From Hydrurus foetidus (lineage: Eukaryota), in NCBI GenBank assembly GCA_900617105.1, contig UYFQ01000413.1, positions 1-39,639 on the forward strand: a DNA stretch of 39,639 bases. Reading direction: 5' to 3'. The position numbers and the translations under genes were made by a program. Below, piece after piece: positions 1,909 through 36,360 of the stretch. Within the stretch, counting starts at the first letter, position 1, and each line of letters opens with the position of its first letter. The notes below the pieces were generated by a model. The model saw only the letters and a program-made list of their open reading frames with translations, ran no database searches and had not been told where the DNA came from.

Positions 1909-2169
1909 GTGGTCTTGGGCGGGGCCTAGGACGTTGGAGCTAAAAGTGGTGGTCGGTTGATGCAAGCGGTGGGCAAGGGAAGAAAGGGTAGGTGGAGTAA
2001 ACTTGTGTTAGTATTTTACAGTTGAGTATCTACAAGTGATGTGTACGCTAAAGTGCATTCACGTCATATGTGGAACTAAGACCTAAAAGTGGAATCTGGG
2101 CGTAATATACCTATTGTACCTAGTTAACCTAGACACATTGTATCCCCTTAGGAATGCAATAAGGCTACA
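1909..2169 (-). repeat. Gypsy 3' LTR
   Basis: Matches 7388-7648 except one substitution seen (2161 A vs 7640 G); begins TGTAG on the minus strand. Confidence 0.95.
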
Positions 2170-2172
2170 CTA

Positions 2173-2189
2173 CCCCTTCTTCCTTTTTT
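2173..2189 (-). other. Polypurine tract of the Gypsy element
   Basis: Minus strand AAAAAAGGAAGAAGGGG lies 3 nt before the 3' LTR start. Confidence 0.85.
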
Positions 2190-2369
2190 GAAGATCTTTG
2201 ATATGATATACAAAAAAAAATGAAAAAAAGAAAAGATATGTAAAACATATATATGAGATATAGATGAAACGATGATGTCAGACTTTTACTGACTAAACTC
2301 TCCAAAAAAGACCCGTAGGTAAAAAAAATAGGAGAGAATCCTCATGGATAAAGTTTCAAATATATTAAG

Positions 2370-5300
2370 TCATCGATGTTGCTTATTGATTAATTTAGTC
2401 ATGTTATTATGACGTAAATAATCATGAAGTTTATCAACATCACGAAGACTTGAATAAGGTTCCCAAGTGTTTTTGTCTGAAGGGTAATTTAACCATTTGA
2501 CTAAAAACTCTATGTGGGTACGTTGGTGTTTGCCACGATGATCAAGAATGTCTTCAACAAAGTATTCCATGTGATCACGTCGTGCAACATCCAACGGATT
2601 TGTGATTGAAGGGTCAAATAGAAAAGGTTTCATTGCAGAAACATGAAACTCTGAAGTTTTCTGAGTGACTAAATCATAAAGTGTGTAACGCGAATTTTCG
2701 CCACTAACGACTTTTAATGGGCCTCTCCAATGCGTGTGAAGACGTGAAGGAGGAGATCCATCGCGATAGTGCACTAAGACATAAGAGTCTTTTGGATACT
2801 CTACATGCTGAAAAATTTGAGACTGACTTTGATGAAGCAAATCTGTGCGAAGAAGTTCTTTAGCAGAAGCTTTAAGAAGACTGTCTTGCGTTTTGAGTAG
2901 ATTGCTCATACGCTTTGACAAAGGTTTGTCATCAGTAACATTTCGCTCAGCAGGAGGTAAAAGATACCTCTATCGAGTTTTAGTACATTTCCGAAAAGAA
3001 GTTGAGAGATGATATTTTTAAACGATCACTGTGATTAGAATTTAAAATTCGTTGCACAAATGGAAGTGACGTTTTATAATCTTCTAATGTGACATTATCG
3101 AATGTTAATGCACGAAGATGTCTATTAACTTCTTTATTCATGCGCTCAACAATAGCATTTTCTTCTTTAGAGTATGCTAAAGTAAGACAATGTTGAGTGC
3201 CAATAAGAGTTAGAAACTCTCTAATAACTTCGGAAATGAAGTGTGGCCCATTATCAGAACGGAGTTGGAGAGGTGCGCCGAAACGACCGAAGTGTTGCAA
3301 GAGGCATTTAGCTGTTGAAAGTGCTGTAGCATCTTCTGTATGAAACAGTTCAACCCATCTTGTGAACGTATCGATAATTACGAGTACGTACCCGCCGTCT
3401 GGAAACGGTCCTATGAAGTCTATGTTAAGGCATTCCATAGGTGTGTAAGTAGAAGTCGAGAAACCATGAGCATGTATTGGTATCTTTAACATACTCATTT
3501 TCTGACAACACGAACAGTGATCTATGAACCACCTGACATGCTGACGCATATATTGCCATACTATCTTTTTGTCAATGAGACGCTTTAAAGTGCGCTCAAG
3601 GCCAAAATGCCAACTTGTGAATTGTGTACTTTACTGATTGTATTGTACTGATCACGTGTTAGTTTGAATTTTTCAATAGTATTAGCAGACATGATTGCAT
3701 CAGGAGTATATTCCTGAGGGAAATCAACCATGTTATTGCGACAGAGTCGAGACATCGAATCAGCTATATCATTGTTAGCACCAGGTATATATTCAATTTT
3801 AAATGAATATTCGGATAAGGCCATAAACCACCGAACAATCATTGGATTTGAATTATCCTTGATGTATAACAAGTTACGATGATCTGTACGCAATGTGAAC
3901 GTACGATCACGTAATAGCGATTTTAAATACGTGCACGAATAAAAGATAGCATATGCTTCTTTTTGTATAACAGCCCAACGAAGCTGAGCTTTGTTAAGTG
4001 ATTTACTGACAAATGCTATGGGCGTTTCTTGACCGTCAACTAGCTGGAAAAGATAGGCACCTACACCATAGTCCGATGCATCAGTGTGCAAGTAAATCGG
4101 ATCGGTGTCACTTAAAAAGTGCATAGTCGTGCATTTTGAAATCTCGGATTTGATCAAATTGAATGCTCTGAGAGCTTCTATTGTCCAAGTTATTTTCTTA
4201 TACTTATTATAGTTAAGAAGCAACTGATGTAACGGGTATACAACAGTAGAAGCGTTTCTAACAAAGTCGTGAAAATAATTAACCAATCCTAAAAAACTTT
4301 TGAGTTGTTTAGATAGTACTGGTTTAGGAAAATCTAAGACAGTCCGTATTTTTCTTGTGACATTCTAAGTCCATCTGCAGATAGAACTTTGCCAACATAA
4401 TCTATTTCGGCATAGCCTAGATAACACTTATTCGGTTTAAGGAATATTTTGTGTTTTCTAAAGCGATCAAAAACAAGACGAAGTCTAGAAATAAGTTCGT
4501 CAATGTCTTTACCGAAAACATTGCAATCATCTATGTACATTTCGCATATAGAGTATATCAACCCTGCTAACACAACAGTCGTCATAATCTGTTGGAAATA
4601 GGAGGGTGCTTGTTTTGGCCCAAAGGGTAAACGAGTGAATTGATATACTCCGCAGAAAAGTATGAATGCAGTATAAGCACGTGCAGCGAGTGTAAGTGGT
4701 GCTTGATGGTAACCTTGAGTGAGGTCAAGTACAGCAAACACTTTTGCTTTATGTGCACCTATTCTACGCAACATCTCACCGATGTGTGGAATAGGATGTG
4801 ATTTATCTTCGGTACAATTGTTGAGATTCCGAAAATCAATACACATGCGCTTAGTTCCATCAGATTTAGGAACTAGTAAAACTTGGCTATAATAAGCCGC
4901 GTTTGATTTTTCAACAATATTTTGTTTTTCAAGTTTTTAATTTGACTAAGAATGTCAGCTTGATCAACTGTTGATTTAGCCCATGGAGGTTGTCTATTTT
5001 TAGAGACTCTCCATTGGTCGTCATTGACATGAAAGTCAAACGGTGGAATATCAGCAGGAGTGGCCGAAAGTTCACTGCTAAATATATCCTTGAATTCGTG
5101 TACTAGTAACGAAGTTTATTTTTCTGATCTTCATCACCTGCTAAGTTTATTAGCGAGAGTGGGTCAGTATCAGGAAATTCATCTATCCAAGGTGAAAACG
5201 AGTCCTTGATCGAGTCGTCGATTTCGTCCTCATCAGGGGGCACAGCCTCAAAAGTCTTTCAGACTCTTGTATTAGTGAAGCTAGAATAACGTGTGTTTGG

Positions 5301-5814
5301 GTTACTGCCGGTTTCACCTTTTGGGTTAAAGGATCGACCTTTGGGGAGCCATCAGAGGGTTGCAACTTCTCCTTAGGCTGACAGCCACACGTTATATCCA
5401 CTTGTTCAGAAGATAAAACTTCCGCTAATGAGGTAGTGCTTGATGAAGCATTGGCAGATATTTGATCGGGGAAACGTGAAAATAAATTCAATTCGCGAAT
5501 TGTTTTTCGTCCCACTATAGATCAAATTTCGAATCGTCTAAAACATAAGCCGTGATTTGAAAAGTATAATAATTATTTAAATCAGGGCAAAAATAAGAAA
5601 GAGTTAAGTCTATAGTGTCAGAAATATCATAACAATGATTATCTAATCCACTACAAACTTTACACAATTTCTTTGAAGAGTTAGATACGAATTGTGTGAA
5701 ATTATGATTAATTATGATGCGGCGATGTATAAAGTTGCCAGCAAAAGAGCCGCCAGGAGAGTAAAGAGCTGTCCAGGAGAGTAAAGACTCTATTACTTTT
5801 TCCAGCATAACCTC
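2370..5814 (-). pseudogene. pol: Gypsy pol (protease, RT, RNase H, integrase, chromodomain), broken by several frameshifts
   Basis: ORF fragments carry RT motifs MCIDFRNLN, LDLTQGYHQ, LPFG and YIDD; RNase H motifs HTDASDYGVG and TDH; integrase motifs IDFIGP, SDNG and ENAIVER; a GPY-like WRGPLKV; and the chromodomain EYFVEDILDHR...FLVKWLNY...TWEP. Several breaks are single-base losses in short homopolymers. Confidence 0.93.
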
Positions 5815-5879
5815 CTGTGAGAGGGGAGATACGAAGAAAGGAATAAGTTCTGGATCATCGGAAAGAATAGATGATGAAT

Positions 5880-7286
5880 TTAGGTTGCATAGTTGCTCAC
5901 CTTTGTGTTTCTTCGCAGCGTTTGTCGAGTCTGCTGTTGAAGTAGCAGGTTTGATTGAAGAAGAGAAGAAGAGGAAGACGATGAAGAAGAGGTCGATGTC
6001 TTAGGTAAAGTTGGAATAAACTTAGCCTTTGAATCGACTTTCAACAACTGCTTATGACCCTCAGAGTTGATATAGGGTGCGTCTGTACTGTTATAGTACG
6101 GAGACGTAGTGTAGAAACACGTGGCGACGAAATGGCCGAGTCTCCCACAACCTGTGCACAGAGGTCTTTCGAATTTGTCAGACTTGTCTGATTGCACAGA
6201 TTGTTCGCTCTCTCGTGGACGTTTTTTGATTTTGTCCTGAGAGGAACGAGGAGGAGCTTTGATTTGGCGAGAGTGATCACCATACAAAGGAGAGACATCA
6301 ATGAACCGTAAGGCATCAATTGATTCTCGTAGCTTAGCAAGCTGCGCAAGCCATACGAATCGAAAGTCTTCGATTGTAATGAGTCTTGGCGTTGTATTGT
6401 TAAGACTACGCTGTAACACTGCTCTCCAATTGATAGGTTCGACAGGCAACTTATCGATTAGAATTTTGGTTGCCTGAAGTTGGAGAGCGGGTGTTGCATC
6501 AGGGAATCCATCAACAATATCAGCTAAAAGCTGATCTGTCTTGTCTTCCACTGATTTATCCTTCAGGTCGAATTGAAGTGCGACCTGAGAGACAGTTTCA
6601 ATGAAACTCAGCTTGTCAGTTCGATTGACAGCTGATGTAGGAACTGTGAGATTGAGTTCTCTACAGAACAATTGATTCGACCAATGTTTCCAATTGTTAC
6701 AGGAGTCGCGACGATCGGGATCAGTTGCAAACTTACGCTTGAGAAGCGTTGTAAACGATTGATGGTTGGAAACATGGATTACATCAACTGGTTTAAATGG
6801 AGTTCCATTTGAAAGGAGGACCTCCATTACCCGTAGTACTTCCTGACGAGAGGGCACGGCGCTCAACTTAGGAGCTCTCTCACCCGTTTGCACATAGTGC
6901 TGAGGTGGTGCCATCGAACGAGGAATCTCAGCCGAAGCTGGTGTCGCAGACGAATCTGGTGTCGCAGCCGAAGCTGGTATCTCAGCCGAAGCTGGTGTCG
7001 CAGTCGAAACTGGTGATAACGTTAGAGCGGATAAAGCAGATAAAACAGGAGCATCAATAACAGACGAGACCGCAGGCTCCGAATTCCGCTGAGGAATCGG
7101 TGCAGACAGGTCGCCGGCGGGGTCCTGAGCCGCAGGTGGCCCAGGAGACTCGATGCTATCTCCTCCACGATTGTGGTGCTCCTCGTAACGTTGTCGGAAG
7201 GCGACGGCGACAGCTCTAGGAGGCTGTCGTTGTCGGCGAAGGGAGTTGATGGTGCTAATCCTCTTGTCCTGGCGTCGGAGAGCCAT
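5880..7286 (-). CDS. gag: Gypsy gag
   Basis: 468-aa ORF just inside the 5' LTR with a CCHC knuckle CTGCGRLGHFVATC and internal ATPASAEI-type repeats (about 6925-7015). The C-terminus is probably shifted by a 1-nt loss in the Ser run near 5964. Confidence 0.88.
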   Translation of the reverse strand: MALRRQDKRISTINSLRRQRQPPRAVAVAFRQRYEEHHNRGGDSIESPGPPAAQDPAGDLSAPIPQRNSEPAVSSVIDAPVLSALSALTLSPVSTATPASAEIPASAATPDSSATPASAEIPRSMAPPQHYVQTGERAPKLSAVPSRQEVLRVMEVLLSNGTPFKPVDVIHVSNHQSFTTLLKRKFATDPDRRDSCNNWKHWSNQLFCRELNLTVPTSAVNRTDKLSFIETVSQVALQFDLKDKSVEDKTDQLLADIVDGFPDATPALQLQATKILIDKLPVEPINWRAVLQRSLNNTTPRLITIEDFRFVWLAQLAKLRESIDALRFIDVSPLYGDHSRQIKAPPRSSQDKIKKRPRESEQSVQSDKSDKFERPLCTGCGRLGHFVATCFYTTSPYYNSTDAPYINSEGHKQLLKVDSKAKFIPTLPKTSTSSSSSSSSSLLQSNLLLQQQTRQTLRRNTKVSNYAT

Positions 7287-7387
7287 TGTCTTCGACTGTC
7301 GGATATTAGTGATGGATTTGAAATTGATGGAGTGGAGAAATGAATTTCTCGCAAAAAAACTTTGGTATCGACCAAATATCGATATTG

Positions 7388-7648
7388 GTGGTCTTGGGCG
7401 GGGCCTAGGACGTTGGAGCTAAAAGTGGTGGTCGGTTGATGCAAGCGGTGGGCAAGGGAAGAAAGGGTAGGTGGAGTAAACTTGTGTTAGTATTTTACAG
7501 TTGAGTATCTACAAGTGATGTGTACGCTAAAGTGCATTCACGTCATATGTGGAACTAAGACCTAAAAGTGGAATCTGGGCGTAATATACCTATTGTACCT
7601 AGTTAACCTAGACACATTGTATCCCCTTAGGAATGCAATGAGGCTACA
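7388..7648 (-). repeat. Gypsy 5' LTR
   Basis: Direct repeat of 1909-2169. Confidence 0.95.
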
Positions 7649-10048: not shown

Positions 10049-10701
10049 TGTGGCATTCTGCCTTGTACGAACATCCTGTTCTACCATTCCGCTACAGAAG
10101 CCACGGGAAAACTTTTTATCGTACATCATCCCGCCATCAAAGCTAACCGAGATTGATAGTTTCGCAAGATTTAGATTCAGGTCTGCGATTAGAGTGTTTC
10201 TGTCTCGGGTCCTCTGTTTGGACAGTTGGATCGCAGAAGGTTCCATTTTGTTTCTGTCGAGATATCGACGATGAAGAGTAGAGAAATTTGATCTGAGGCA
10301 TCTTCATGTACTTGATAGATGACAGAACTTTCACGTCGTCTGCCGTTTTTCAAAAGTTCGGTCACCCAAATTGTGCTGCGTCGATATTATTCAAGTGAGT
10401 AACGACATGACGTCTGACCAGATGACATTTTGAAACGATCAATCTTTCGAGGGAGAGAAAATTTCGTTGGGGAGAGAAAACCTTTGAGGAGGACAGAATT
10501 CACCGATCTGACGTTTCGTTATGACTTTAAAACAATACCGTCGAGTGCCTATTTTTTTGCACTCGACGGTATGCAAACGACAATAGTTATACGGTCATCG
10601 ACAACACAAAATGCAACCGGTTACTTTGTTTCGTCCTTTGGGACATGGCGGTTTTATTCTCTTGGGGTCGAAAGTACTCAAGCTCATCACTCATCACTGA
10701 T

Positions 10702-10953
10702 TTCTATTCCACTACCTGAGTTAGGTCCCTTTAGGGGAAGGAGTCCCATAAGGTTAACCCTGCTTCCCCCTACGCTCTCCGTTGCTCGTTGGGTGCAAAG
10801 TAAAGAGACGCGTGAGGAAGATAAAGTAATGTTATCTTACGATATGGGTGCGCTTGCGCCCCTGAGCTCGCCCTTCCACCCTCCCCTGCTGTTCTGACTC
10901 TCGAACTAAGCTAGGGTACTGGGGGCGGACCTTGGGTCAGAGTTCCCTTCACC
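10702..10953 (-). repeat. Split direct repeat B2
   Basis: Copy of 11367-11617 with one substitution and one G indel seen. Confidence 0.95.
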
Positions 10954-11036
10954 AACTGGGCACGCAAGTGGTCAGATAACATTAAACAACAACTTATTCT
11001 GTAAATAAATACAACGTAGGATTGGTTGGCCACGGG

Positions 11037-11366
11037 ATAATGAAACGCGTTAGACTCCAAAGGCTAATATTAATCAAAAGATTATAAGACGATACTGTTA
11101 GTCGGTCGCGTTGAGTCGCACACGACGCTCCGTCTGCGACACGGATTGCACTCCACAGATTCGAAAACAATTCAAAAAACACAAAGCATAGCGCTGCAGT
11201 GACGAAGGGGACCGGTCTGCCACAGTATCTCGACCCAAGGTCTTCGTCGTCATCGCTCCCTTAACACCTTCCCCTCCGCAGCCGTCCCTATGGGAACCGG
11301 CGACGGTCAGCGGCCCTTGCTCATAGCCGCTCCAGAGAACCCGTGCTACCGAACGGTATCCATTAA
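11037..11366 (-). repeat. Split direct repeat A2
   Basis: Copy of 17257-17588 with a few clustered differences; abuts B1 at CATTAA|TTCT, the expected circle-junction sequence. Confidence 0.95.
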
Positions 11367-11617
11367 TTCTATTCCACTACCTGAGTTAGGTCCCTTTAGG
11401 GGAAGGAGTCCCATAAGGTTAACCCTGCTTCCCCCTACGCTCTCCGTTGCTCGTTGGGTGCAAAGTAAAGAGACGCGTGAGGAAGATAAAGTAATGTTAT
11501 CTTACGATATGGGTGCGCTTGCGCCCCTGAGCTCGCCCGTCCACCCTCCCCTGCTGTTCTGACTCTCGAACTAAGCTAGGGTACTGGGGCGGACCTTGGG
11601 TCAGAGTTCCCTTCACC
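11367..11617 (-). repeat. Split direct repeat B1 (contains the recombinase stop codon)
   Basis: Copy of 10702-10953. Confidence 0.95.
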
Positions 11618-12844
11618 CGCTACCACACCAAGGCTCTGACTCGGACCGGACTTATCAGTGCGTCCGCCCCTCCTTCCCTCGACTTCCCTCGCCGGGGGTA
11701 TCAGCCTCCTCAGGTCCTCAATTGTCGGTTTGTGTCCGCCGACCAAACTGTTGGACGCGAGCGGGCCGATTCCTGTCCCATAATCGTAGGTGATGTTCAT
11801 CACCTGGGAGTTCGGGGCATAATTACCTCTGTCCCTCCGGTCATCCTCCGAGGCTCCGAGGGAGCGCATTTCCGTGATCGCCCCTTTCCTCAGAGAATGG
11901 GAGCTGAAGTAGTTGCGGTCCAGACCGTTCCTCTCGCACGTGTCTTTGAGCGCCTCCCTAATGTCCCTTGACCGCAGCTTCACACAGGGGGTCGATCCGA
12001 CCCGAACGCTGAAGAGCTCATCCTTTCCCGTGCTGCCGCTGCGCAGCATGAAGTCTACGAGGTCGTCGAGGAAGGCGCCTTCCTCTGCCGACCGGCGACC
12101 GATAATATTCGGCTTGACCAGCTTCTTGCCCTTGGCGGTCACCGCAGTGGCCCTACACTCCACGACGGTCGGTCTACGGGTGCCGTCCGCTGGCTCGACC
12201 TCTGCAAGCCTGCTGCCGTAAAAGCTCCTGCTGCCATTGGGCGAGACGGCCACAAAGATCAAGTCGTCCACACGGACACAATGATCGACCCCCCCCGGCT
12301 CGGCGGTGGTGTACTCCGACACCCGCGCCCCCATCTCGAATGCCCACATACACCCAATGTACTTCGTCCGGTCCCGCAGGTCGGCCCCGGTCCAACCCCG
12401 TCCTGTCCACATCCTCGTCTTCATCTCGACCAGGACACTCTCACAAATCGGTAGCTTGACGCTGGCCGCTGCCCCGCGGTTCTTCCTCTCCCGGAGCTCC
12501 TCCGGTTTGAGCTGGCAGGCCGCCCTCGCAGTCTCTACAACTGTCGACTTCAAAAAATCCGTTGAGAGACCCTCCTGCGAGAATCGTAGGCGAATGGCGG
12601 CCGTGAAGGAGGTCGCCTGCTTTCCTCGCTGGCCCTGCTCGTGCTTCCTCAGCATCATGATCCCGACCAGGGACGCCTTCTCCTCTTCGCCCGCACCCCC
12701 CACAAATGGGTCGTTCTCGTCCACCTCACTCTTGAGGAAGGCTACCCACTGCTCCCAGTACTTGTCGTAAGCACGGTGCGTGTTGGGTAGCACGGACTTT
12801 CCTATGAAGCGAGAAAGCTCCAGTCGACTCTGGGTCGACACCAT
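11576..12844 (-). CDS. Tyrosine recombinase
   Basis: 422-aa ORF with N-terminal NTHRAYDKYWEQW, catalytic Arg box MGARVSEY, HxxR box SSHSLRKG, and RGNYAPNSQVMNITY carrying the likely catalytic Tyr. Confidence 0.93.
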   Translation of the reverse strand: MVSTQSRLELSRFIGKSVLPNTHRAYDKYWEQWVAFLKSEVDENDPFVGGAGEEEKASLVGIMMLRKHEQGQRGKQATSFTAAIRLRFSQEGLSTDFLKSTVVETARAACQLKPEELRERKNRGAAASVKLPICESVLVEMKTRMWTGRGWTGADLRDRTKYIGCMWAFEMGARVSEYTTAEPGGVDHCVRVDDLIFVAVSPNGSRSFYGSRLAEVEPADGTRRPTVVECRATAVTAKGKKLVKPNIIGRRSAEEGAFLDDLVDFMLRSGSTGKDELFSVRVGSTPCVKLRSRDIREALKDTCERNGLDRNYFSSHSLRKGAITEMRSLGASEDDRRDRGNYAPNSQVMNITYDYGTGIGPLASNSLVGGHKPTIEDLRRLIPPAREVEGRRGGRTDKSGPSQSLGVVAGEGNSDPRSAPVP

Positions 12845-12994
12845 TCCAGCGACTCCTGTAGTGATGACATTCGATGGGTGAAGTGGTTACTGAGCCAAAC
12901 TTCAGGTAGTGAGTCAAGAGGGGGAGCGACGGTCGACTCCTGCGGATCTAAGGTCTGCTGGCCCCGGTGCGAAGGCGCTCCTCAATGTCTCGTA

Positions 12995-15292
12995 TCAGTG
13001 TCGCGAGTATCGGAGCAAGAACGAATCAATAGCGCTCCTGGCTGAGGACCAGAACCCTATGAACTCCTCCTCGGAGTGCAGCTCGGACCTGGGGTCGCAT
13101 AGATTGAGTAGGTTGACGATGTCTTTGTCACCATCGATCTCGACTACGTCTACCCCCCGCACACCCATCGCCTCTGCCTCATCGAGGATTGACGTCGCTG
13201 GGGTGCGACCTCTCCTCGACAGCTGGTCGCACCTCTTGTTGTCCGTGCCAGCGATGTGCGTGACCTCCTTCACGTCAACGCCGGCTGCGATGCAGAGCAG
13301 GGAGAAAACCATTGCGGCTTTAGTTACCCTCTCGCCTCTTGGCCTCTCCGTTATGGCCCATGTCAAGGCCGTCACACTATCGCCCCGTAGGGCCACACTC
13401 CTCCCCCCACATCCGAGAGCGATATGTCCTAGAACGGCTAAGATCGCTCCAAGGAACTCCGAGAGGTTCTGGAACGACGAATCTTCGCCGAACCCGAGGA
13501 ACAGGAGATCCGCGGCGCCGACACCCACTGCCACCTCTGCGTCGCCTTCTCTGCTGTACCATATAAGGCCGGCTCCACTCAGCGATGAGTCGAACTCGGC
13601 CACAACTGTCGGGGTCTCCGGCGCGAAGGACGCGATGGCCCGGGTAAACTCCACTTCCCTGTGCCGTACCAGGCACAGCATGGCCCTCCAGCACTGGATG
13701 GCTACAACAGCCTCGGCTGACAGGGCGAATAGCGCATGGGGGTCCGTCCGACCCCATGTCAAGCGGTAGAGGGCGCTGCAAAATGGGCGCATAACCCGGC
13801 AGATCTTGCCGTAGCGGGTGCTCCACGATGCGAGTCGCTGCGCCGTCCTCAAGTTGACTCGCGCCGAGGTATCCGCGGTAAGAAAACCGTGTAAGGCAGT
13901 TAAGAAATTTTTCTTACTTATCAGTACACGTCCGGTATCAAGGTCTATGATGTACCCGATTACGTCGAGTCGCCGGCTGACCTCAGTCTTGTCGTCCGCG
14001 ACTGCGCCGGAACCGAGCAGTCCAGTGCAGATGTCTCTTGTCAGGGCGAGGTCAGCGGCGATGTTCTCTTCGAAGCCGATCCCGATGATGTCGTCGACAT
14101 ACATCACGGTGCTGCTGTGCAGTCTTGACCGAAGCTCCCACGCGATGGCTCGAGTGACCACTTGGAAAGCAGCTGGGGTACCTGACCAACCGAAGATGCC
14201 GGCAAGCTGCAAGTACACCAGGTCGTCCGTAAGCAGCATGCCGAAAAGGCCGACGTACTCAGCTCGAAAGGAGAGAAGAGTGTACGCCCCCTTTAAGTCC
14301 ATCTTCCACAAGCGGAGGTCTTCATACCGAAGAGACGAGTCGCGGGCCGCAGCGTCCTTCCAAAACTGATGGACCATGATGGCGATGTCCTCTATCGTTG
14401 GGTGTGTAATGGCTCCGTAGTAAGCTGTGGCAGCGTCGGCGGTGGCGACCGTGTTGAGCGGGGTGCCGTCCACGTTGCTCAAGTCCCCCAAAGGGCGTCC
14501 CGACGGCTTCCCCCTCTTTGTCGTCCAATGCGCTTTACTCAGGTGAAGATTGGGGACGTGTTCTTGGGCTAATTTCAGTGGCAATAAAAACGCCAGCCGC
14601 TGCTCCATCACGGCGCCTAGCATCTTGTTTACGGCGCACGACACCGCCTCGTAGGAGACCCGCAGCGGCGACCGAGGCTGGTTTCCGTTGGGCGTGAACC
14701 CCTCGGGTATCGCCACCCTCATCCCGTCCACTAAGTCGGTGATCAGTGCCATCTCCGGATTCTCCGGACTCAGTGATGCCACACTAGTATGGCTCAAGCG
14801 GTCCTTTGAGAGGATCTTGAACCGACGCTCCACCATCTTCCGAAAGTCCAGTTGGGCGGCCTGCAGACAGCGGACGTCACTTGCGATATACTCAAGTGGA
14901 AAGACGTAGCCGCCCGCCCACTCGTTCGCTGCATCAGCTCCGAAATCGTTGCGTGCCGCCTCCGCCGCCTCTGCTATCAGCTCCTCTATCCCTGCCCTGC
15001 TCGTGGGTGAGCCGCCCGGGAAGCACGCTTTTATCCAAGCCCCGATCACGGGCGCCGCCCCGCTGGGGTCGACTCTCCTGTCTTCCGTGCTGCCGGCTGA
15101 CGCTTCTGGTCTTGACTCTCGCTGGGTCAGACGCGGTGCCTCAGTTTGCGGTACGCTCTCGGCGACTACGTAAAGGAATGAAGCGGATAGGTGAGTATCA
15201 GGTACTACTGATAAACATTCAAGGCACCGCGAGGCACTCAAGTGCTTTCGCCGCGTGCCCGATGCTACGGTCGCATGATAAACACAGCCCAA
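12995..15292 (-). CDS. Reverse transcriptase / RNase H (DIRS-type); true 5' end may be a splice acceptor at 15166
   Basis: RT motifs WKMDLKGAY, GIFGWSGTP and MYVDD; RNase H motifs EFDSSLSGAG, NLSEFLG, LRGDSVTA and HIAGTDNKRCDQLSR. Confidence 0.94.
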   Translation of the reverse strand: MGCVYHATVASGTRRKHLSASRCLECLSVVPDTHLSASFLYVVAESVPQTEAPRLTQRESRPEASAGSTEDRRVDPSGAAPVIGAWIKACFPGGSPTSRAGIEELIAEAAEAARNDFGADAANEWAGGYVFPLEYIASDVRCLQAAQLDFRKMVERRFKILSKDRLSHTSVASLSPENPEMALITDLVDGMRVAIPEGFTPNGNQPRSPLRVSYEAVSCAVNKMLGAVMEQRLAFLLPLKLAQEHVPNLHLSKAHWTTKRGKPSGRPLGDLSNVDGTPLNTVATADAATAYYGAITHPTIEDIAIMVHQFWKDAAARDSSLRYEDLRLWKMDLKGAYTLLSFRAEYVGLFGMLLTDDLVYLQLAGIFGWSGTPAAFQVVTRAIAWELRSRLHSSTVMYVDDIIGIGFEENIAADLALTRDICTGLLGSGAVADDKTEVSRRLDVIGYIIDLDTGRVLISKKNFLTALHGFLTADTSARVNLRTAQRLASWSTRYGKICRVMRPFCSALYRLTWGRTDPHALFALSAEAVVAIQCWRAMLCLVRHREVEFTRAIASFAPETPTVVAEFDSSLSGAGLIWYSREGDAEVAVGVGAADLLFLGFGEDSSFQNLSEFLGAILAVLGHIALGCGGRSVALRGDSVTALTWAITERPRGERVTKAAMVFSLLCIAAGVDVKEVTHIAGTDNKRCDQLSRRGRTPATSILDEAEAMGVRGVDVVEIDGDKDIVNLLNLCDPRSELHSEEEFIGFWSSARSAIDSFLLRYSRH

Positions 15293-15632
15293 ACACGGGT
15301 ATCATACGACGATAAGCATCATCAATCCGCATGCGGAGGGTCCAGACACCCCTGGAGCCCCGTTTTCGCTGTATTCACACCGGCGACCGCACGCGTCAGT
15401 GTTAACTACATGACAGTACGCAACTTCGTCAACTGTCTACCTCTCGGCAGCGGTCTCCCTATATACCACTGGCATTCAGGGGAGACCGCTGAAACAGCAA
15501 TGTCACAGACGCTCATCATCAACACGCAAGTAGACGAGCACATGACAAGCTGCCGATCCTTGATCGACCCGAGTAACAGAATGACGTTACTCAATACACA
15601 CCTATGCAAACGGACGGCATCTCTTCCAGAAG

Positions 15633-17258
15633 TCACGATCGCTTGAGAACTGCCTTGGTCAAATCTCCTCGAGCCGTGGCGGTCAAGGAGCCGACAATGT
15701 CAAGCAGACGTTGCTTAGACTTGCCCGCTATCGCCACGTGCCTGAAAGCACAGTTGTCCCCGTATTTGCAGGAGTAGGCGCGGCCGTCCTTGTTGACGGC
15801 ACCCAAGACGTTTCCCAGATGCCCAACGCATGGCCTGGAGCTAACGTCCTTATTCTCATCCCCTGGCGTCACGAATGCAACAGCTGCCTTCTCGTTATTT
15901 TTCCCAGCAGCTTCCTTCTTCGTCGGGGTTTTCACCGCCGAAGCTGTATCCAAGCGTCGGATTTCCCGTATCCGAAAATGGGCCTCTCTCATCACCATAG
16001 ATGGGTGATCCGAGAGCTCCATCGCCAACTTCCTGAACAAATCTGTGAGGTGCGTTGCGCAGAGCTCTGGGGTCCGTAATGACAACTCCGCTGGCAGCGC
16101 CGAGCCCCGAACAGTAGCAACCTCACGGAAGAACCTCTTGAGTCCCAGTTGCACTGAGTGCTTCAAGAAATCAGAGGGAACCAGCTCCATAGGCCTGCAC
16201 ACGCCTTCCAACTTATCAATAAAGGACTCTAAAACCTTCTCAAAGACGTCTGAGAAGCAGACTTGCATGACCATTTGGACATTTTTGAGAGCCGTCACCA
16301 AGCCCGCGTTGTTGGATGGGCAAGGTGACGGCTTGCTCGAGATTTTTTCCCCAGATAAGAAGTCCTCCAAGCACAAGGTGGCTTCACTGGTGTCGGCGAG
16401 GACTGAGCCGATAAGTAAAAGCTTGAGTTTACCGTTCTCAGCTAGAACCGGTAGTTTTTGAATCCGGTTCATAAGGCCGCAGGACATGAAGGCAGGGTGC
16501 CTGTCAATGACCTGCGTGTCCCCCTGTTCGAACAGCATTCCCCTATAGTACTCCGGCTGTAGGGTGACGTCGGATCTGATACCATAGTTATGTCTGACGG
16601 GGTCCATGATACGATATGTGCACCATAACTCCCTCTCGCGTTGATGCAGGTCAGTCTTGTTCCTTGTCGAGTGCTCCCCCCCATCTAAATCTACGATGGA
16701 CATACCTTTCGTTTTCCCAGAAGTGTCTTCCGCCTGCTCACCCCCTACCTCCAGTGGGCGAAGACATGGACGCTTCGCGGGTTCTGCCCCGGGCGCACTG
16801 CCTGCCGCAGGCTCTAGAGAGGCGCGCAGAGCTTGCAACAGGCGAGGTTGGGCCACCAGATAGTGACCCATTGAGGGAAACTTCATAAGTGCACCGACCG
16901 GGAAAGGGCGGTCCAAGGTTCCCGCCGAGAAATTGGAGCAATGACCATAAGTCATCCGGGTCTGAGGTTTCTCATGGACCTGGAAGAACATGGACTTGCA
17001 CCTTGCAAGAAACGTAAAGTTGAGTGCTTCCTCTGCCTGTGGTGCATCCAATGGAATCACCACAACCGAGTTGGACGGAACCTCCGCAGCCGGAACCGAG
17101 AGGACCATCTGCATAGCATACTGCTCGCCGTCATCGTCCGAGTACCCCGCTACGATCGACGCTGCGTGCTCCAAAGCACGCATCAGAGGCCCAGTCACCT
17201 GCGCGTACGCTGGAAGGATCACACCGCTAGTTTCGACAGACGAAGCGGTAGCAGACAT
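15633..17258 (-). CDS. ORF1/gag-like protein of the YR retrotransposon (541 aa from ATG 17258)
   Basis: The first ATG coincides with the inner end of repeat A1. The C-terminal C...CKYGDNCAFRH is a CCCH-type zinc finger; the ORF occupies first position in the element. Confidence 0.85.
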   Translation of the reverse strand: MSATASSVETSGVILPAYAQVTGPLMRALEHAASIVAGYSDDDGEQYAMQMVLSVPAAEVPSNSVVVIPLDAPQAEEALNFTFLARCKSMFFQVHEKPQTRMTYGHCSNFSAGTLDRPFPVGALMKFPSMGHYLVAQPRLLQALRASLEPAAGSAPGAEPAKRPCLRPLEVGGEQAEDTSGKTKGMSIVDLDGGEHSTRNKTDLHQRERELWCTYRIMDPVRHNYGIRSDVTLQPEYYRGMLFEQGDTQVIDRHPAFMSCGLMNRIQKLPVLAENGKLKLLLIGSVLADTSEATLCLEDFLSGEKISSKPSPCPSNNAGLVTALKNVQMVMQVCFSDVFEKVLESFIDKLEGVCRPMELVPSDFLKHSVQLGLKRFFREVATVRGSALPAELSLRTPELCATHLTDLFRKLAMELSDHPSMVMREAHFRIREIRRLDTASAVKTPTKKEAAGKNNEKAAVAFVTPGDENKDVSSRPCVGHLGNVLGAVNKDGRAYSCKYGDNCAFRHVAIAGKSKQRLLDIVGSLTATARGDLTKAVLKRS

Positions 17259-17588
17259 AATGAAACGCGTTAGACTCCAAAGGCTAATATTAATCAAAAG
17301 ATTATAAGACGATACTGTTAATCGGTCGCGTTGAGTCGCACACGACGCCTTGTCTGCGACACGGATTGCACTCCACAGATTCGAAAACAATTCAAAAAAC
17401 ACAAAGCATAGCGCTGCAGTGACGAAGGGGACCGGTCTGCCACAGTATCTCGACCCAAGGTCTTCGTCGTCATCGCTCCCCCCCCCCACCTTCCCCTCCG
17501 CAGCCGTCCCTATGGGGACCGGCGACGGTCAGCGGCCCTTGCTCATAGCCGCTCCAGAGAACCCGTGCTACCGAACGGTATCCATTAA
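17257..17588 (-). repeat. Split direct repeat A1 (5' terminus)
   Basis: Copy of 11037-11366. Confidence 0.95.
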
Positions 17589-24900: not shown

Positions 24901-27900
24901 TGACATCCCTCTCCGCTATAAAAATAACGGACGTGATGGTAGCCACGTTAAACTTAATAGTGACATTGAAAGAAGCACTACCTCGCCATCCTCCCCTCTC
25001 TGCGAGGTAGTGTCCAGTGTAGGCGCGCACGACAAACTCACTGGAACGTTCTTCGGCAATGTGGTTTCCCAGGGGAATGTTCTCCAGGAATCTTCTGTGC
25101 ACAATGTTCACTTCGGAGTACGTAACGGAACGTTCTTCACTGGGTACTTGGATCCGTCCATTCCGCTAATCTCACAAAGTAAGAATTAGAATATTTAAGA
25201 TTCACACGAATGAGAGTGACGCGAGTTAGATTGAGAGCGAGGATGACAGTTAGAGTGATATCGTTGCGTGCATTATATCACAATTTGGAATAAATCATGT
25301 TTGGTTGAATAGTCCGTTTTGTGCCTAACTACCCACATGCCCCTTTCTCAGTCAGTCCTCTCATCCCTCTCCCCTTTCTTTCCTCTCTTCCGTCCTTTTG
25401 CTCCACTCCTGCTTTTCTTTTTTCCCTAAGAATTCGAATCGTTGATGTCTGGTGTGGGATGGTTGGTCAGAGACGGGTCTTCCTACATCTCTGAAAACAT
25501 CTCGCCTTCAGGGGATAACGAAACAAAAACCGCCTTGTCTCTGTCCCTTCCTCTACCTCCTTCTCTTCCTTCTATCAGTTCCGATGATGACTGTTGGTTT
25601 ACATTTCTGCCATACTCGGATGCCGACACAGAGTCGCAATTTCGCTCTCCGTCTAACTCGGGATTCCTCACTCAGTCTGACCCACACTCAGCCTCTCATT
25701 CTGACCCATCCATCCTCTTCAATTCTCAGTCATATTCTGACTCATCCTCTCTGTCTAGCAGTGCGTCATCCGAATCGTCCCTCACCTCCATATCTGCCAG
25801 ATCCGTCATAGGGTGCGACGTTAAAGGTAAACTCCTGCTACTGCAAATAGACGGATCAACAGGGTCGGCCGGGGAGGGGAGCGGGATGACTTTGCTAGAA
25901 GTCGCAGATCTGGCGGTGGAACTTGGGTTTCATTCTGGAATAAACTTGATAGCTGGCGTGAGCATGAGTGTGAACGGGAGTGTGGTTTCCCTCGCAACAG
26001 ACGCCTGTCCGCCTAGGGATGAAGAGCAGAATGGGGGGACAGAGAATGGGGCTGAGTATTTCAAGTGTTCTGGAGTCATCACGGGCACATACGCATGCAT
26101 CCACTCCCTCCCGACTCCTTTTCCCTCCTCTTCCTTCCCTTCTGTCTCGCCTATTTCCCCTCCTTCTCCTTCATTTCCCTCCCCTCCCTCATTACCTTCT
26201 TCACCCTCTATATCTCCCCCCTCATCTCTTTCTTCTCCCTCTCTACCTGCCCCCGAATCTGCCAATCCCCCCGCAGCACACCCCACACACACACCCAACA
26301 ATTGGCCTCCTTGGGTGAATGGGGATGAAGGAGGAGCAGGGGGAGACGACTACTACTCCACCCCCCACCCCTCCTCTACCCGTGACTCCAATACGGGAGC
26401 AATGACTGACAATGACAATTTATCAGGCAATCTTACCCTCTCTACCGCATCCTTCCATTCCCTGCAAGATTCGGCTATTTTTTACCGTTTTTCCTCGGAA
26501 GTTTTGTTAGGATTGCTCGCAGCTTCCGTATTGGTGAATATATTCCTATTTGCAAGATCACGAAAAAACGGGAAAAATCGTCATTTCGCTGAGAAAGGTG
26601 AAGAACACTTTTTACTTTTTACTTACTTGCGATTATGTGGGGTGTTGTATTGTTCCTCACATACTACTCATTTTCATTGACTCGTTACGTAACACGTTAT
26701 CCTATACTATCCTCTGTATCCTATCCCACCCTCGTGTATCTAGTAGCCCACTCAGAAACTACCAGTCTATTTCAAGTAACTTCTCACTCATCTCATCTCA
26801 TCTTATCTTATCTCTCTCTACTTGCCTCATCCCATTCCCGTCTTTCCCTCTCTGTTATCATTCACTCCACCTCTCTCTCTCGTCACATTAATTCGCTCAT
26901 CTTCACTCCTCTTATTCCATAACACCTCTCTCCCTCCCTTTTTTACATCATATCTCATTTCATCTCTCTCATTCTCCGTCTATCTCTATTCTGATATTCA
27001 CCTCTCTTTCTTTCTCTCCTTTGTTAACTTCCTCTCCCTCTCTTCCTCACTAGGAATCGAAGGGAGGGCATCTAGTCTGGAATCTGGTCCACGATCCCAG
27101 CAAGCGCACTCACGACACAACGTGGAGCCCGAAGCTGAGCAATCCGATCACGGCTATCCCGACTCTTCACAAGGTACTTCACTGATTTCATGTTATACAA
27201 ATATTGTTCATCATGAAGTGCAGCGCGTTGCATCATGCTATATTTCAGTGAAGTCTGATGAAGTATGATATAGTAAAAACAGAAGGTGCTGTAGCGAGAC
27301 CGAACAGTACAGTGCGGATAAATATATATCATATTAACAATCCTATAAATCTATCACATGCCTTCTCTCTCCCACTTTTCTTCTTTCTTTTTCTCTCCCT
27401 CTCCCTATTCTTCTCTTCCCGCTCTCTGTCTCTGTCTCTCTCTCTTTCTTTCTATTTTTTTCTCTTCATCTCAATCTCTTTCACAGCCTTTAGTTTGAAG
27501 AGTGGAGAGGGCGAGAGGGGAGGAACGGGTTCAGGGACAGGGGTGGGTACCGACAGAGACTGGAGGAAACAACTCAGGTGATAATTATGTAACTGAAACG
27601 AACATTATTTGACGCTCACTCTCACTCTTAGTCTCACTCTTACTCTTTCTCATTGTATTCTTATTCTCATTATTCAAACTTATGTGCATGTAGTGAGATG
27701 AAGTTCTCTATTGATGATAGTAGTAGTGAGGAAGAGGGTGGGAGAAGAGAAAGAGAAAGAGGTAGTGAAAGCAGTAGAGCACCCACTGTATTCAGCACGT
27801 ACATGCCGCAGTCAGCCAATGAAAAAGGCTACAGAAACAACGCACAAGAGGGTGGACTGAAAAACAAAAATAAGGGTGGGGTTTTAGGGGGTCTGTTTGG

Positions 27901-33122: not shown

Positions 33123-36360
<3,238 letters not shown>

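Follow-up and report, generated by a model that had tools for sequence, protein, structure and literature searches.

In the 39,639-nt contig UYFQ01000413.1 from Hydrurus foetidus (hereafter designated the window, taken over its whole length), we found on the minus strand, running from 17588 to 10702, an intact 6.9-kb tyrosine recombinase (YR) retrotransposon with split direct repeats of the Ngaro/PAT type. Its two enzymes, that is, the reverse transcriptase (RT) with its RNase H and the recombinase, are probably both made by spliceosomal splicing onto the first 184 residues of Gag, from one pre-mRNA and by means of alternative acceptors. This arrangement had been proposed in an earlier note on the same DNA, made from the letters of the window alone, and is weighed here by comparison with close and distant relatives of the element.

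The splice sites named in that note, namely donors at 16705 and 16741 and acceptors at 15166 and 12856, were all found on the minus strand at these positions and all in phase 1, and the three open reading frames (ORFs) are indeed non-overlapping. Joining 16706 to 15165 removes 1540 nt and leaves an open Gag-N/RT product of 907 aa, and joining 16706 to 12855 removes 3850 nt and leaves an open Gag-N/YR product of 610 aa, both fusions being in frame as proposed. By a generic donor score built on the general splice consensus, the 16705 donor ranks first among the 393 GT sites of the element, and the RT acceptor ranks first among 180 YAG sites by a score for pyrimidine content and branch motif. The YR acceptor ranks second of the 180 by the absence of G over the preceding 30 nt, a score picked after the data had been seen. 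Moreover, the predicted introns show the sequence signals of the U2 type, with a GT donor, a branch site, a YAG acceptor, and compatible phase. The host of the element is an intron-bearing eukaryote. Eight nearby host introns, with ends located by eye (six in a cysteine-synthase-like gene, in which PALP was matched in three of four exons scanned, one weakly, and two in a BMS1-like gene), are of the GT-AG type and 224–522 nt long, and in most of them ACTCAC, CTGAC, or CTAAC precedes the acceptor. The RT acceptor resembles the host acceptor at 34707.

The donor was compared among 47 Gag homologues, from which one near-identical and one chimeric protein were dropped; 41 rows including the query (about 40–76% identity) span the site. 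In all 41, an invariant Lys is followed by G-[M/T/A]-[S/Y/F/L], in seven kinds of tripeptide (GMS 16, GTS 14, GTY 4, GAY 3, GTF 2, GTL 1, and GMY 1), which is what G|GT RYG T would encode. No other of the 533 Gag positions agrees in every row with a phase-1 donor G|GT RNG T; the background rate of agreement after any Gly is 280/1391 (20%). The caveat raised in the earlier note, that phase-1 donors arise easily at GGT codons, is countered by these figures, though by protein and not by DNA. At the second candidate donor (G173-E174), G-E is retained in 40 of the 41 proteins, likewise as protein and not as DNA. The donor after K184 is predicted to lie at a boundary of Gag domains, because in the AlphaFold2 model a confident domain at about residues 14–148 (predicted local distance difference test score, pLDDT, about 90) is followed by a disordered linker at 149–184 (pLDDT below 50), and the core begins with a strand at residue 186. 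The first 32 residues past the RT acceptor are also predicted to be disordered. Foldseek returned no significant match for the Gag fold, and the best VIA hits of Gag residues 14–148 (16815–17217, minus strand) were small beta-barrels (EF-P, eIF5A, Tudor; Z 4.4, not significant).

Distant relatives comprised 67 metagenome loci (RT identity 26–61%, mostly 30–45%) and three loci from genome contigs; none of 29 pattern matches in viral contigs was a relative. Among 18 upstream ORFs, the best-scoring donor was in phase 1 in 11, tied in 2, in phase 0 in 4, and in phase 2 in 1. After L037, whose upstream ORF is not gag-like, and L056, whose 5′ part is missing, had been left out, 16 gags were aligned, and a phase-1 donor (score at least 5.5) was located within −25 to +6 residues of the Gag D-x-D-G strand in 11 of them, a phase-2 donor in one, and a phase-0 donor in none. 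When each 60% RT cluster was represented by its worst-case locus alone, a phase-1 donor was present in 8 of 13 clusters as compared with 1.1 expected (P ≤ 2.4e-3 across all 12 window/threshold settings), these P values being descriptive since the anchor window was picked after the phase counts were known. To become visible, the signal requires both the scoring of donors and the anchor position: a strict count of GTRNGT in the distant gags without the anchor gives 13, 10, and 12 in phases 0, 1, and 2, with no phase bias. Both sets bear out the conservation of donor and phase in diverged relatives by which the earlier note had proposed to check its model, the close set at the level of protein.

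The RT frame itself has an unusual beginning. Its supposed ATG at 15292 is actually TTG, and it is to this TTG that the gap of 340 bp had been counted, whereas the other reported gap, 150 bp, is counted to the real YR ATG at 12844. An in-frame RT ATG first appears at 14836, where the open frame has reached residue 156, and 48 ATGs come before it in the element. Residues 81–155, which precede this ATG, are nevertheless conserved: across 119 homologues, column identity averages 0.59, 15 columns reach 90% or more, and W88 is covered by 113 of the 119 homologous ORFs. The RT therefore needs an unusual route. The TTG strengthens the case for splicing, as 75 conserved residues of the RT frame then precede its first ATG. 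Residues 1–46, upstream of the acceptor, are not conserved in the same homologues, among which the highest Met column upstream reaches 13 of 119; TTG 15292 was rejected as a conserved start on this ground, and readthrough or a single frameshift to the window RT is ruled out by the stops, at least five in every frame, of the gag-RT spacer.

When three sequence runs were mapped onto 15110–15250 at 80% likeness, one other contig in each run revealed a second family that matches only 15163–15199, with 5 differences in 37 nt and divergence of both flanks. The matching stretch extends from the branch site to the AG of the RT acceptor, and the downstream flank, translated by eye, is the start of P0018, an RT homologue of 82% RT identity; this island of conservation comes from one family in one study. 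The pattern is the opposite of that which the earlier note had taken to speak against its model, the N-terminal codons from 15292 being unconserved and the branch-to-AG island conserved. In addition, the nearest RT homologues carry T-H about ten codons ahead of Y-V-V, Y-A-V, or Y-T-V, and of the 61 long N-termini among the 119, 24 show a branch-like T[HDN] signature, versus 15 ± 2.9 in shuffles, 3 of 1000 of which were as high.

Most distant relatives are likely to reach their RT in a different manner, by reading through the gag stop. Among 31 non-redundant distant loci with a visible stop 5′ of the RT, 20 have gag in frame behind this single stop, three end too early, and eight do not have this layout. 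In 21 loci chosen for the readthrough layout (including L034, in which the contig leaves room for only 14 codons), the gag-RT stop is TGA in 15, TAG in 6, and TAA in none, with G (13) or C (8) as the next base; the stops at the RT end in 26 loci, for comparison, are TAA in 13, TGA in 9, and TAG in 4, with the next base even. We take this stop usage and next base to be a readthrough-type context, and the TGA-CTAG at L009:2345–2352 is a known one. These relatives appear to splice the YR only, the same donor likely serving it, a situation not foreseen in the earlier note. The RT tree was a quick, midpoint-rooted version with long branches and only unnamed relatives, which does not show the order of events; in it, the window element falls with good support in a clade whose 31 rows are diverged and have open RT frames, the others being known only as protein, and this clade is sister to L002/L003/L006/L029/L039. 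Because of the layout counts and the tree position, a spliced YR together with a readthrough RT looks like the widespread state and the spliced RT like a lineage variant, the direction being read from a tree without a real root.

Several other features of these relatives may be recorded here. L029 contains at about 620–730, within the open frame upstream of the RT, an intron-like GTAAGT ... CTCAC ... TATAG, whose donor and acceptor phases differ. Very long third ORFs (964–1750 aa) are found at L026:6716–10252, L033:4519–9768, and L037:5039–7930, two tandem gag-RT-YR copies lie on one contig at L015:894–9045, and L068–L070 are relatives in three bacterial metagenome-assembled genomes, probably on contaminating contigs.

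The signal for phase-1 acceptors before the YR was moderate in the distant loci, of which 26 non-redundant ones were used after the removal of three that were broken or duplicated. Judged by pyrimidine content, the best YAG before the YR domain is in phase 1 in 22 of the 26 (15.2 expected, P 0.001), about half of all YAG in such open frames being in phase 1 anyway. A common fourth score distributes the best sites over phases 1/0/2 as 18/2/6 before the YR versus 8/7/6 before the RT of the 21 readthrough-layout loci, and acceptor strength differs weakly between the two places (P 0.06). The best argument for a Gag-YR fusion is that the readthrough-type relatives retain a phase-1 donor without needing it for an RT splice.

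A number of observations weigh against splicing of both enzymes. The case is built on the comparison of DNA and protein, by which the one-donor, two-acceptor model of the earlier note is supported in part (donor, phase, the RT island, and the lack of a conserved start upstream of the RT). The close relatives, and with them their donors, are known as protein only, the metagenome scan having yielded distant ones alone. The YR acceptor of the window ranks only 36th of the 180 YAG sites by the pyrimidine and branch score, and four codons downstream of it the YR frame carries an ATG; among the 26 distant YRs, only 5 are devoid of a Met up to the beginning of the domain (cut-off, more than 20 residues into it), and the YR phase test depends on the score used, two other rules giving phase 1 in 19 of 26 (P 0.06). 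Five of the 16 distant gags have no good phase-1 donor at the D-x-D-G anchor, the phase-2 donor of L047 is an unexplained exception, as are the acceptor-like sites before the RT of L006 and L029, which are in phase 2, and several scores were chosen post hoc, like the anchor. The predicted introns exceed the host introns in length, and none of the eight host introns starts with GTAYGT. The RT Met at 14836 is retained in 114 of the 119 close homologues. Finally, no Gag-N/RT or Gag-N/YR fusion was found among 16 longer-protein matches or 120 RT homologues, a weak negative since the collections searched consist of gene calls on contigs.

The three sequence runs look like DNA and are silent on expression: among the 15 joints listed of 20, none fits a predicted junction, and their contigs, up to 72–79 kb (X1, X2), have even depth over predicted introns and exons.

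The alternative that survives best, though improbable, is that the RT alone is spliced onto Gag, and that an unfused YR is translated from ATG 12844 of a message of its own, which arises from an internal promoter or as a leader-spliced RNA. The in-frame ATG, the weak pyrimidine and branch score of the window acceptor, and the Met found before or near the domain start in 21 of the 26 distant YRs would be in line with it; the remaining five distant YRs, however, have their first Met only 35–271 residues into the domain, and the readthrough-type relatives keep both a phase-1 gag donor and a phase-1 YR acceptor although no RT splice is needed. Moreover, the 5′ leader contains one moderate donor only.

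Expression without any splicing, with RT and YR reached by internal initiation (an internal ribosome entry site or shunt on the spacer, or a non-AUG codon, for instance TTG 15292) or through internal promoters, is more doubtful still. The spacer, for which no Rfam match was found, folds more stably than all 100 shuffles (z −4.5), and this structure keeps internal initiation alive, but it may just as well serve packaging or the control of splicing. Ahead of the RT acceptor lies a 46-codon open frame that includes the TTG, and the conserved Met 14836 might also favor this explanation; in the distant RTs, the column of this Met-156 is occupied by L in 12, M in 11, A in 6, Y in 2, and F in 1, with 15 gaps, a pattern as for a helix position. 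What speaks against unspliced expression is that conservation is confined to the branch-to-AG island and does not extend to the codons upstream of 15166, and that the donor-shaped G-[M/T/A]-[S/Y/F/L] of the close Gags and the phase-1 donors of the distant gags would be left unaccounted for. A long hairpin of the spacer, at 15230–15330 (minus strand), lies where depth peaks owing to a large number of short related contigs; it may be a conserved structure for packaging or for the control of splicing.

That the splice-like motifs are due to chance or protein constraint, and the spacer is a decayed readthrough junction in a non-autonomous copy, is very improbable: GGT codons easily give phase-1 donors, K-G may be constrained as protein, and the readthrough layout does exist in distant relatives, but all three frames are intact, the repeats are 97–99.6% identical, 31 diverged rows have open RT frames, and M/T/A and S/Y/F/L, chemically dissimilar, all fit a donor.

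In the splicing of both enzymes that we prefer, unspliced RNA, perhaps from a single promoter, would be translated into Gag and would also be the genome, for which it would need to escape splicing. From the one phase-1 donor behind K184, the folded N-domain of Gag would be spliced to RT-RNase H or, via the second acceptor, to the recombinase. The efficiency of splicing would then set the ratio of Gag to enzymes, and the shared N-domain might, as a pure proposal, bring both enzymes into the particle. In the distant relatives, the same donor would likely serve the YR alone, with the RT made by readthrough of the gag stop. On balance, we favor the broader view that an old and wide split-repeat YR group of microbial eukaryotes keeps introns on purpose, the donor at the Gag boundary tagging the recombinase with a shared N-domain, and that a lineage including the window element swapped Gag-RT readthrough for a second acceptor, so as to obtain three proteins from one RNA with a common address tag.

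The layout of the element is summarized in Table 1. The repeats are direct, and the inverted terminal repeats with an internal complementary region typical of DIRS were not found; among the 25 longest of 28 inverted pairs in the window, none lies inside the element. Gag-like ORF1 is a putative gag, its upstream position, size, and weak C-terminal CCCH being in keeping with one; its fold gave no significant match. For the RT, the predicted model matched the RTs of Moloney murine leukemia virus (MMLV), cauliflower mosaic virus (CaMV), and Ty3 by Foldseek (E 6e-13 to 1e-9); Pfam RVT_1 was matched in 7 of 40 RT homologues and not in the window RT protein itself, for which a PDB sequence search gave no match either. 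The YR protein contains the R, HSLR, and Y motifs and matched Phage_integrase below the curated cut-off (E 0.0028). A protein family scan gave no match to a DDE integrase in the three ORFs, and none to a methyltransferase family in the window ORFs or in the RT homologues scanned. Indeed, the RT frame stops about 75 residues past the last RNase H motif, leaving no room for a methyltransferase domain. The element matches the Ngaro layout, and the absence of a methyltransferase after RNase H favors Ngaro over PAT, an assignment set by layout and not by an RT tree with named references; in the part of PMC4157794 that was covered, this absence marks Ngaro and VIPER.

Table 1 Features of the YR retrotransposon and its predicted splice sites, listed from the 5′ end of the element
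Feature	Position	Strand	Remarks
Repeat A1 (5′ end)	17257..17588	minus	321 identical positions versus A2 over 332/330 nt; 3′ bases run into gag ATG
Predicted shared first coding exon, Gag 1–184	16706..17258	minus	folded domain about 14–148 plus disordered linker 149–184
ORF1, Gag-like, 541 aa	15633..17258	minus	47 homologues; weak CCCH zinc finger toward C end (zf-CCCH E 0.0015, below cut-off)
Possible second phase-1 donor GTGAGC (GGG|GTGAGC, 16741)	16736..16741	minus	score 5.5 versus 7.5 for 16705 donor
Predicted phase-1 donor GTATGT after K184 (AAG|GTATGT, first G 16705)	16700..16705	minus	41/41 homologues compatible
Gag-RT spacer, within both predicted introns	15167..15632	minus	at least 5 stops in each frame; RNA predicted structured
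Predicted RT acceptor: branch ACTCAC (A about 15192), pyrimidine tract, TACGTAG	15166..15199	minus	phase 1
RT-RNase H coding region	12995..15165	minus	YVDD; RNase H motifs EFDSS, LSEF, GDS; first ATG only at 14836
Predicted YR acceptor ending ACTACAG	12856..12890	minus	phase 1; weaker branch motif
Tyrosine recombinase (YR) coding region	11576..12855	minus	R186, HSLR 330–333, Y367/369 of open frame; own ATG 12844
Repeat B1	11367..11617	minus	250/251 identical to B2; overlaps 3′ end of YR
Repeat A2	11037..11366	minus	partner of A1
Repeat B2 (3′ end of element)	10702..10953	minus	partner of B1

The trinucleotide AAT stands at both junctions of the element (17586–17588 and about 10699–10701) with no longer target duplication, and may mark the crossover of the recombinase. 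The A and B repeats (10702–11617 and 17257–17588) have a depth 10–70 times that of most coding bins, and some contigs link about 16715 to repeat A2; together with the repeat depth, these possibly reflect many solo or non-autonomous derivatives. Elsewhere in the window, a Ty3/gypsy retrotransposon of the chromovirus type occupies 1909–7648 (minus strand), with identical 261-bp long terminal repeats (1909–2169 and 7388–7648) and with RT, RNase H, integrase, and chromodomain spread over four separate frames. The host genes are the cysteine-synthase-like gene (33340–36360, plus strand), the BMS1-like gene (37310–39639, minus strand), and a NAGPA-domain gene (25430–26680, plus strand), and the nearby host introns frequently contain microsatellites.

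The published systems compared below are taken from the parts of the cited papers that were covered. The window element resembles the Ngaro-like elements of Cafeteria in the order A1-[gag, RT-RH, YR]-B1 A2 B2, in a length of about 6–7 kb, and in the lack of a DDE integrase (PMC8547959), as well as in the H-x-x-R and Tyr of its YR and in having no methyltransferase. It differs in that its ORFs are separate, whereas those of the Xenopus Ngaro overlap (PMC9210276), and in its RT, which lacks a dedicated start codon and is predicted to be expressed by splicing. The split direct repeats are shared with PAT (PMC6681497, PMC4157794), but PAT groups with DIRS and usually carries a methyltransferase domain, lost in some lineages (PMC4157794), and none fits into the window element. 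Within the main text covered, nothing under "splic" concerned the splicing of element ORFs in PMC8547959, PMC3783388, PMC6681497, PMC9210276, or PMC4157794, and expression of YR-retrotransposon ORFs by splicing was not found in the literature searched, which included PMC7192593, PMC12477816, and PMC8226300, with the main review outside its coverage; the intron mentioned in PMC7192593 is a reporter intron. The literature covered likewise holds no account of how the second and third ORFs of YR retrotransposons are translated.

The conserved donor and acceptors define exact junctions for such an account. If they are used, the real RT and YR proteins bear an unrecognized N-domain, and annotations and enzyme expression constructs begin at the wrong place. 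The group as a whole would be a natural comparison of readthrough versus splicing as ways of making one enzyme. Readthrough of a stop codon is how gammaretroviruses make Gag-Pol. The 20 of 31 distant relatives described above resemble them in that gag is followed by one TGA or TAG, with G or C as the next base and the RT in frame; the window element differs in its spacer, with multiple stops in each frame. Its splicing is more reminiscent of foamy viruses, in which Pol is produced from a spliced mRNA and not by frameshift or readthrough, and in which the splice ratio may set Gag:Pol (PMC3705302). The foamy virus pol mRNA, however, is without Gag, and Pol has its own start (PMC3705302), whereas the predicted products of the window element keep Gag 1–184 and use two acceptors. 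In the plant Ty1/Copia element EVD, too, host splicing balances structural and catalytic proteins (PMC5580714), but there the spliced RNA gives Gag and the unspliced RNA the enzymes (PMC5580714), a logic that would be reversed in the window element.

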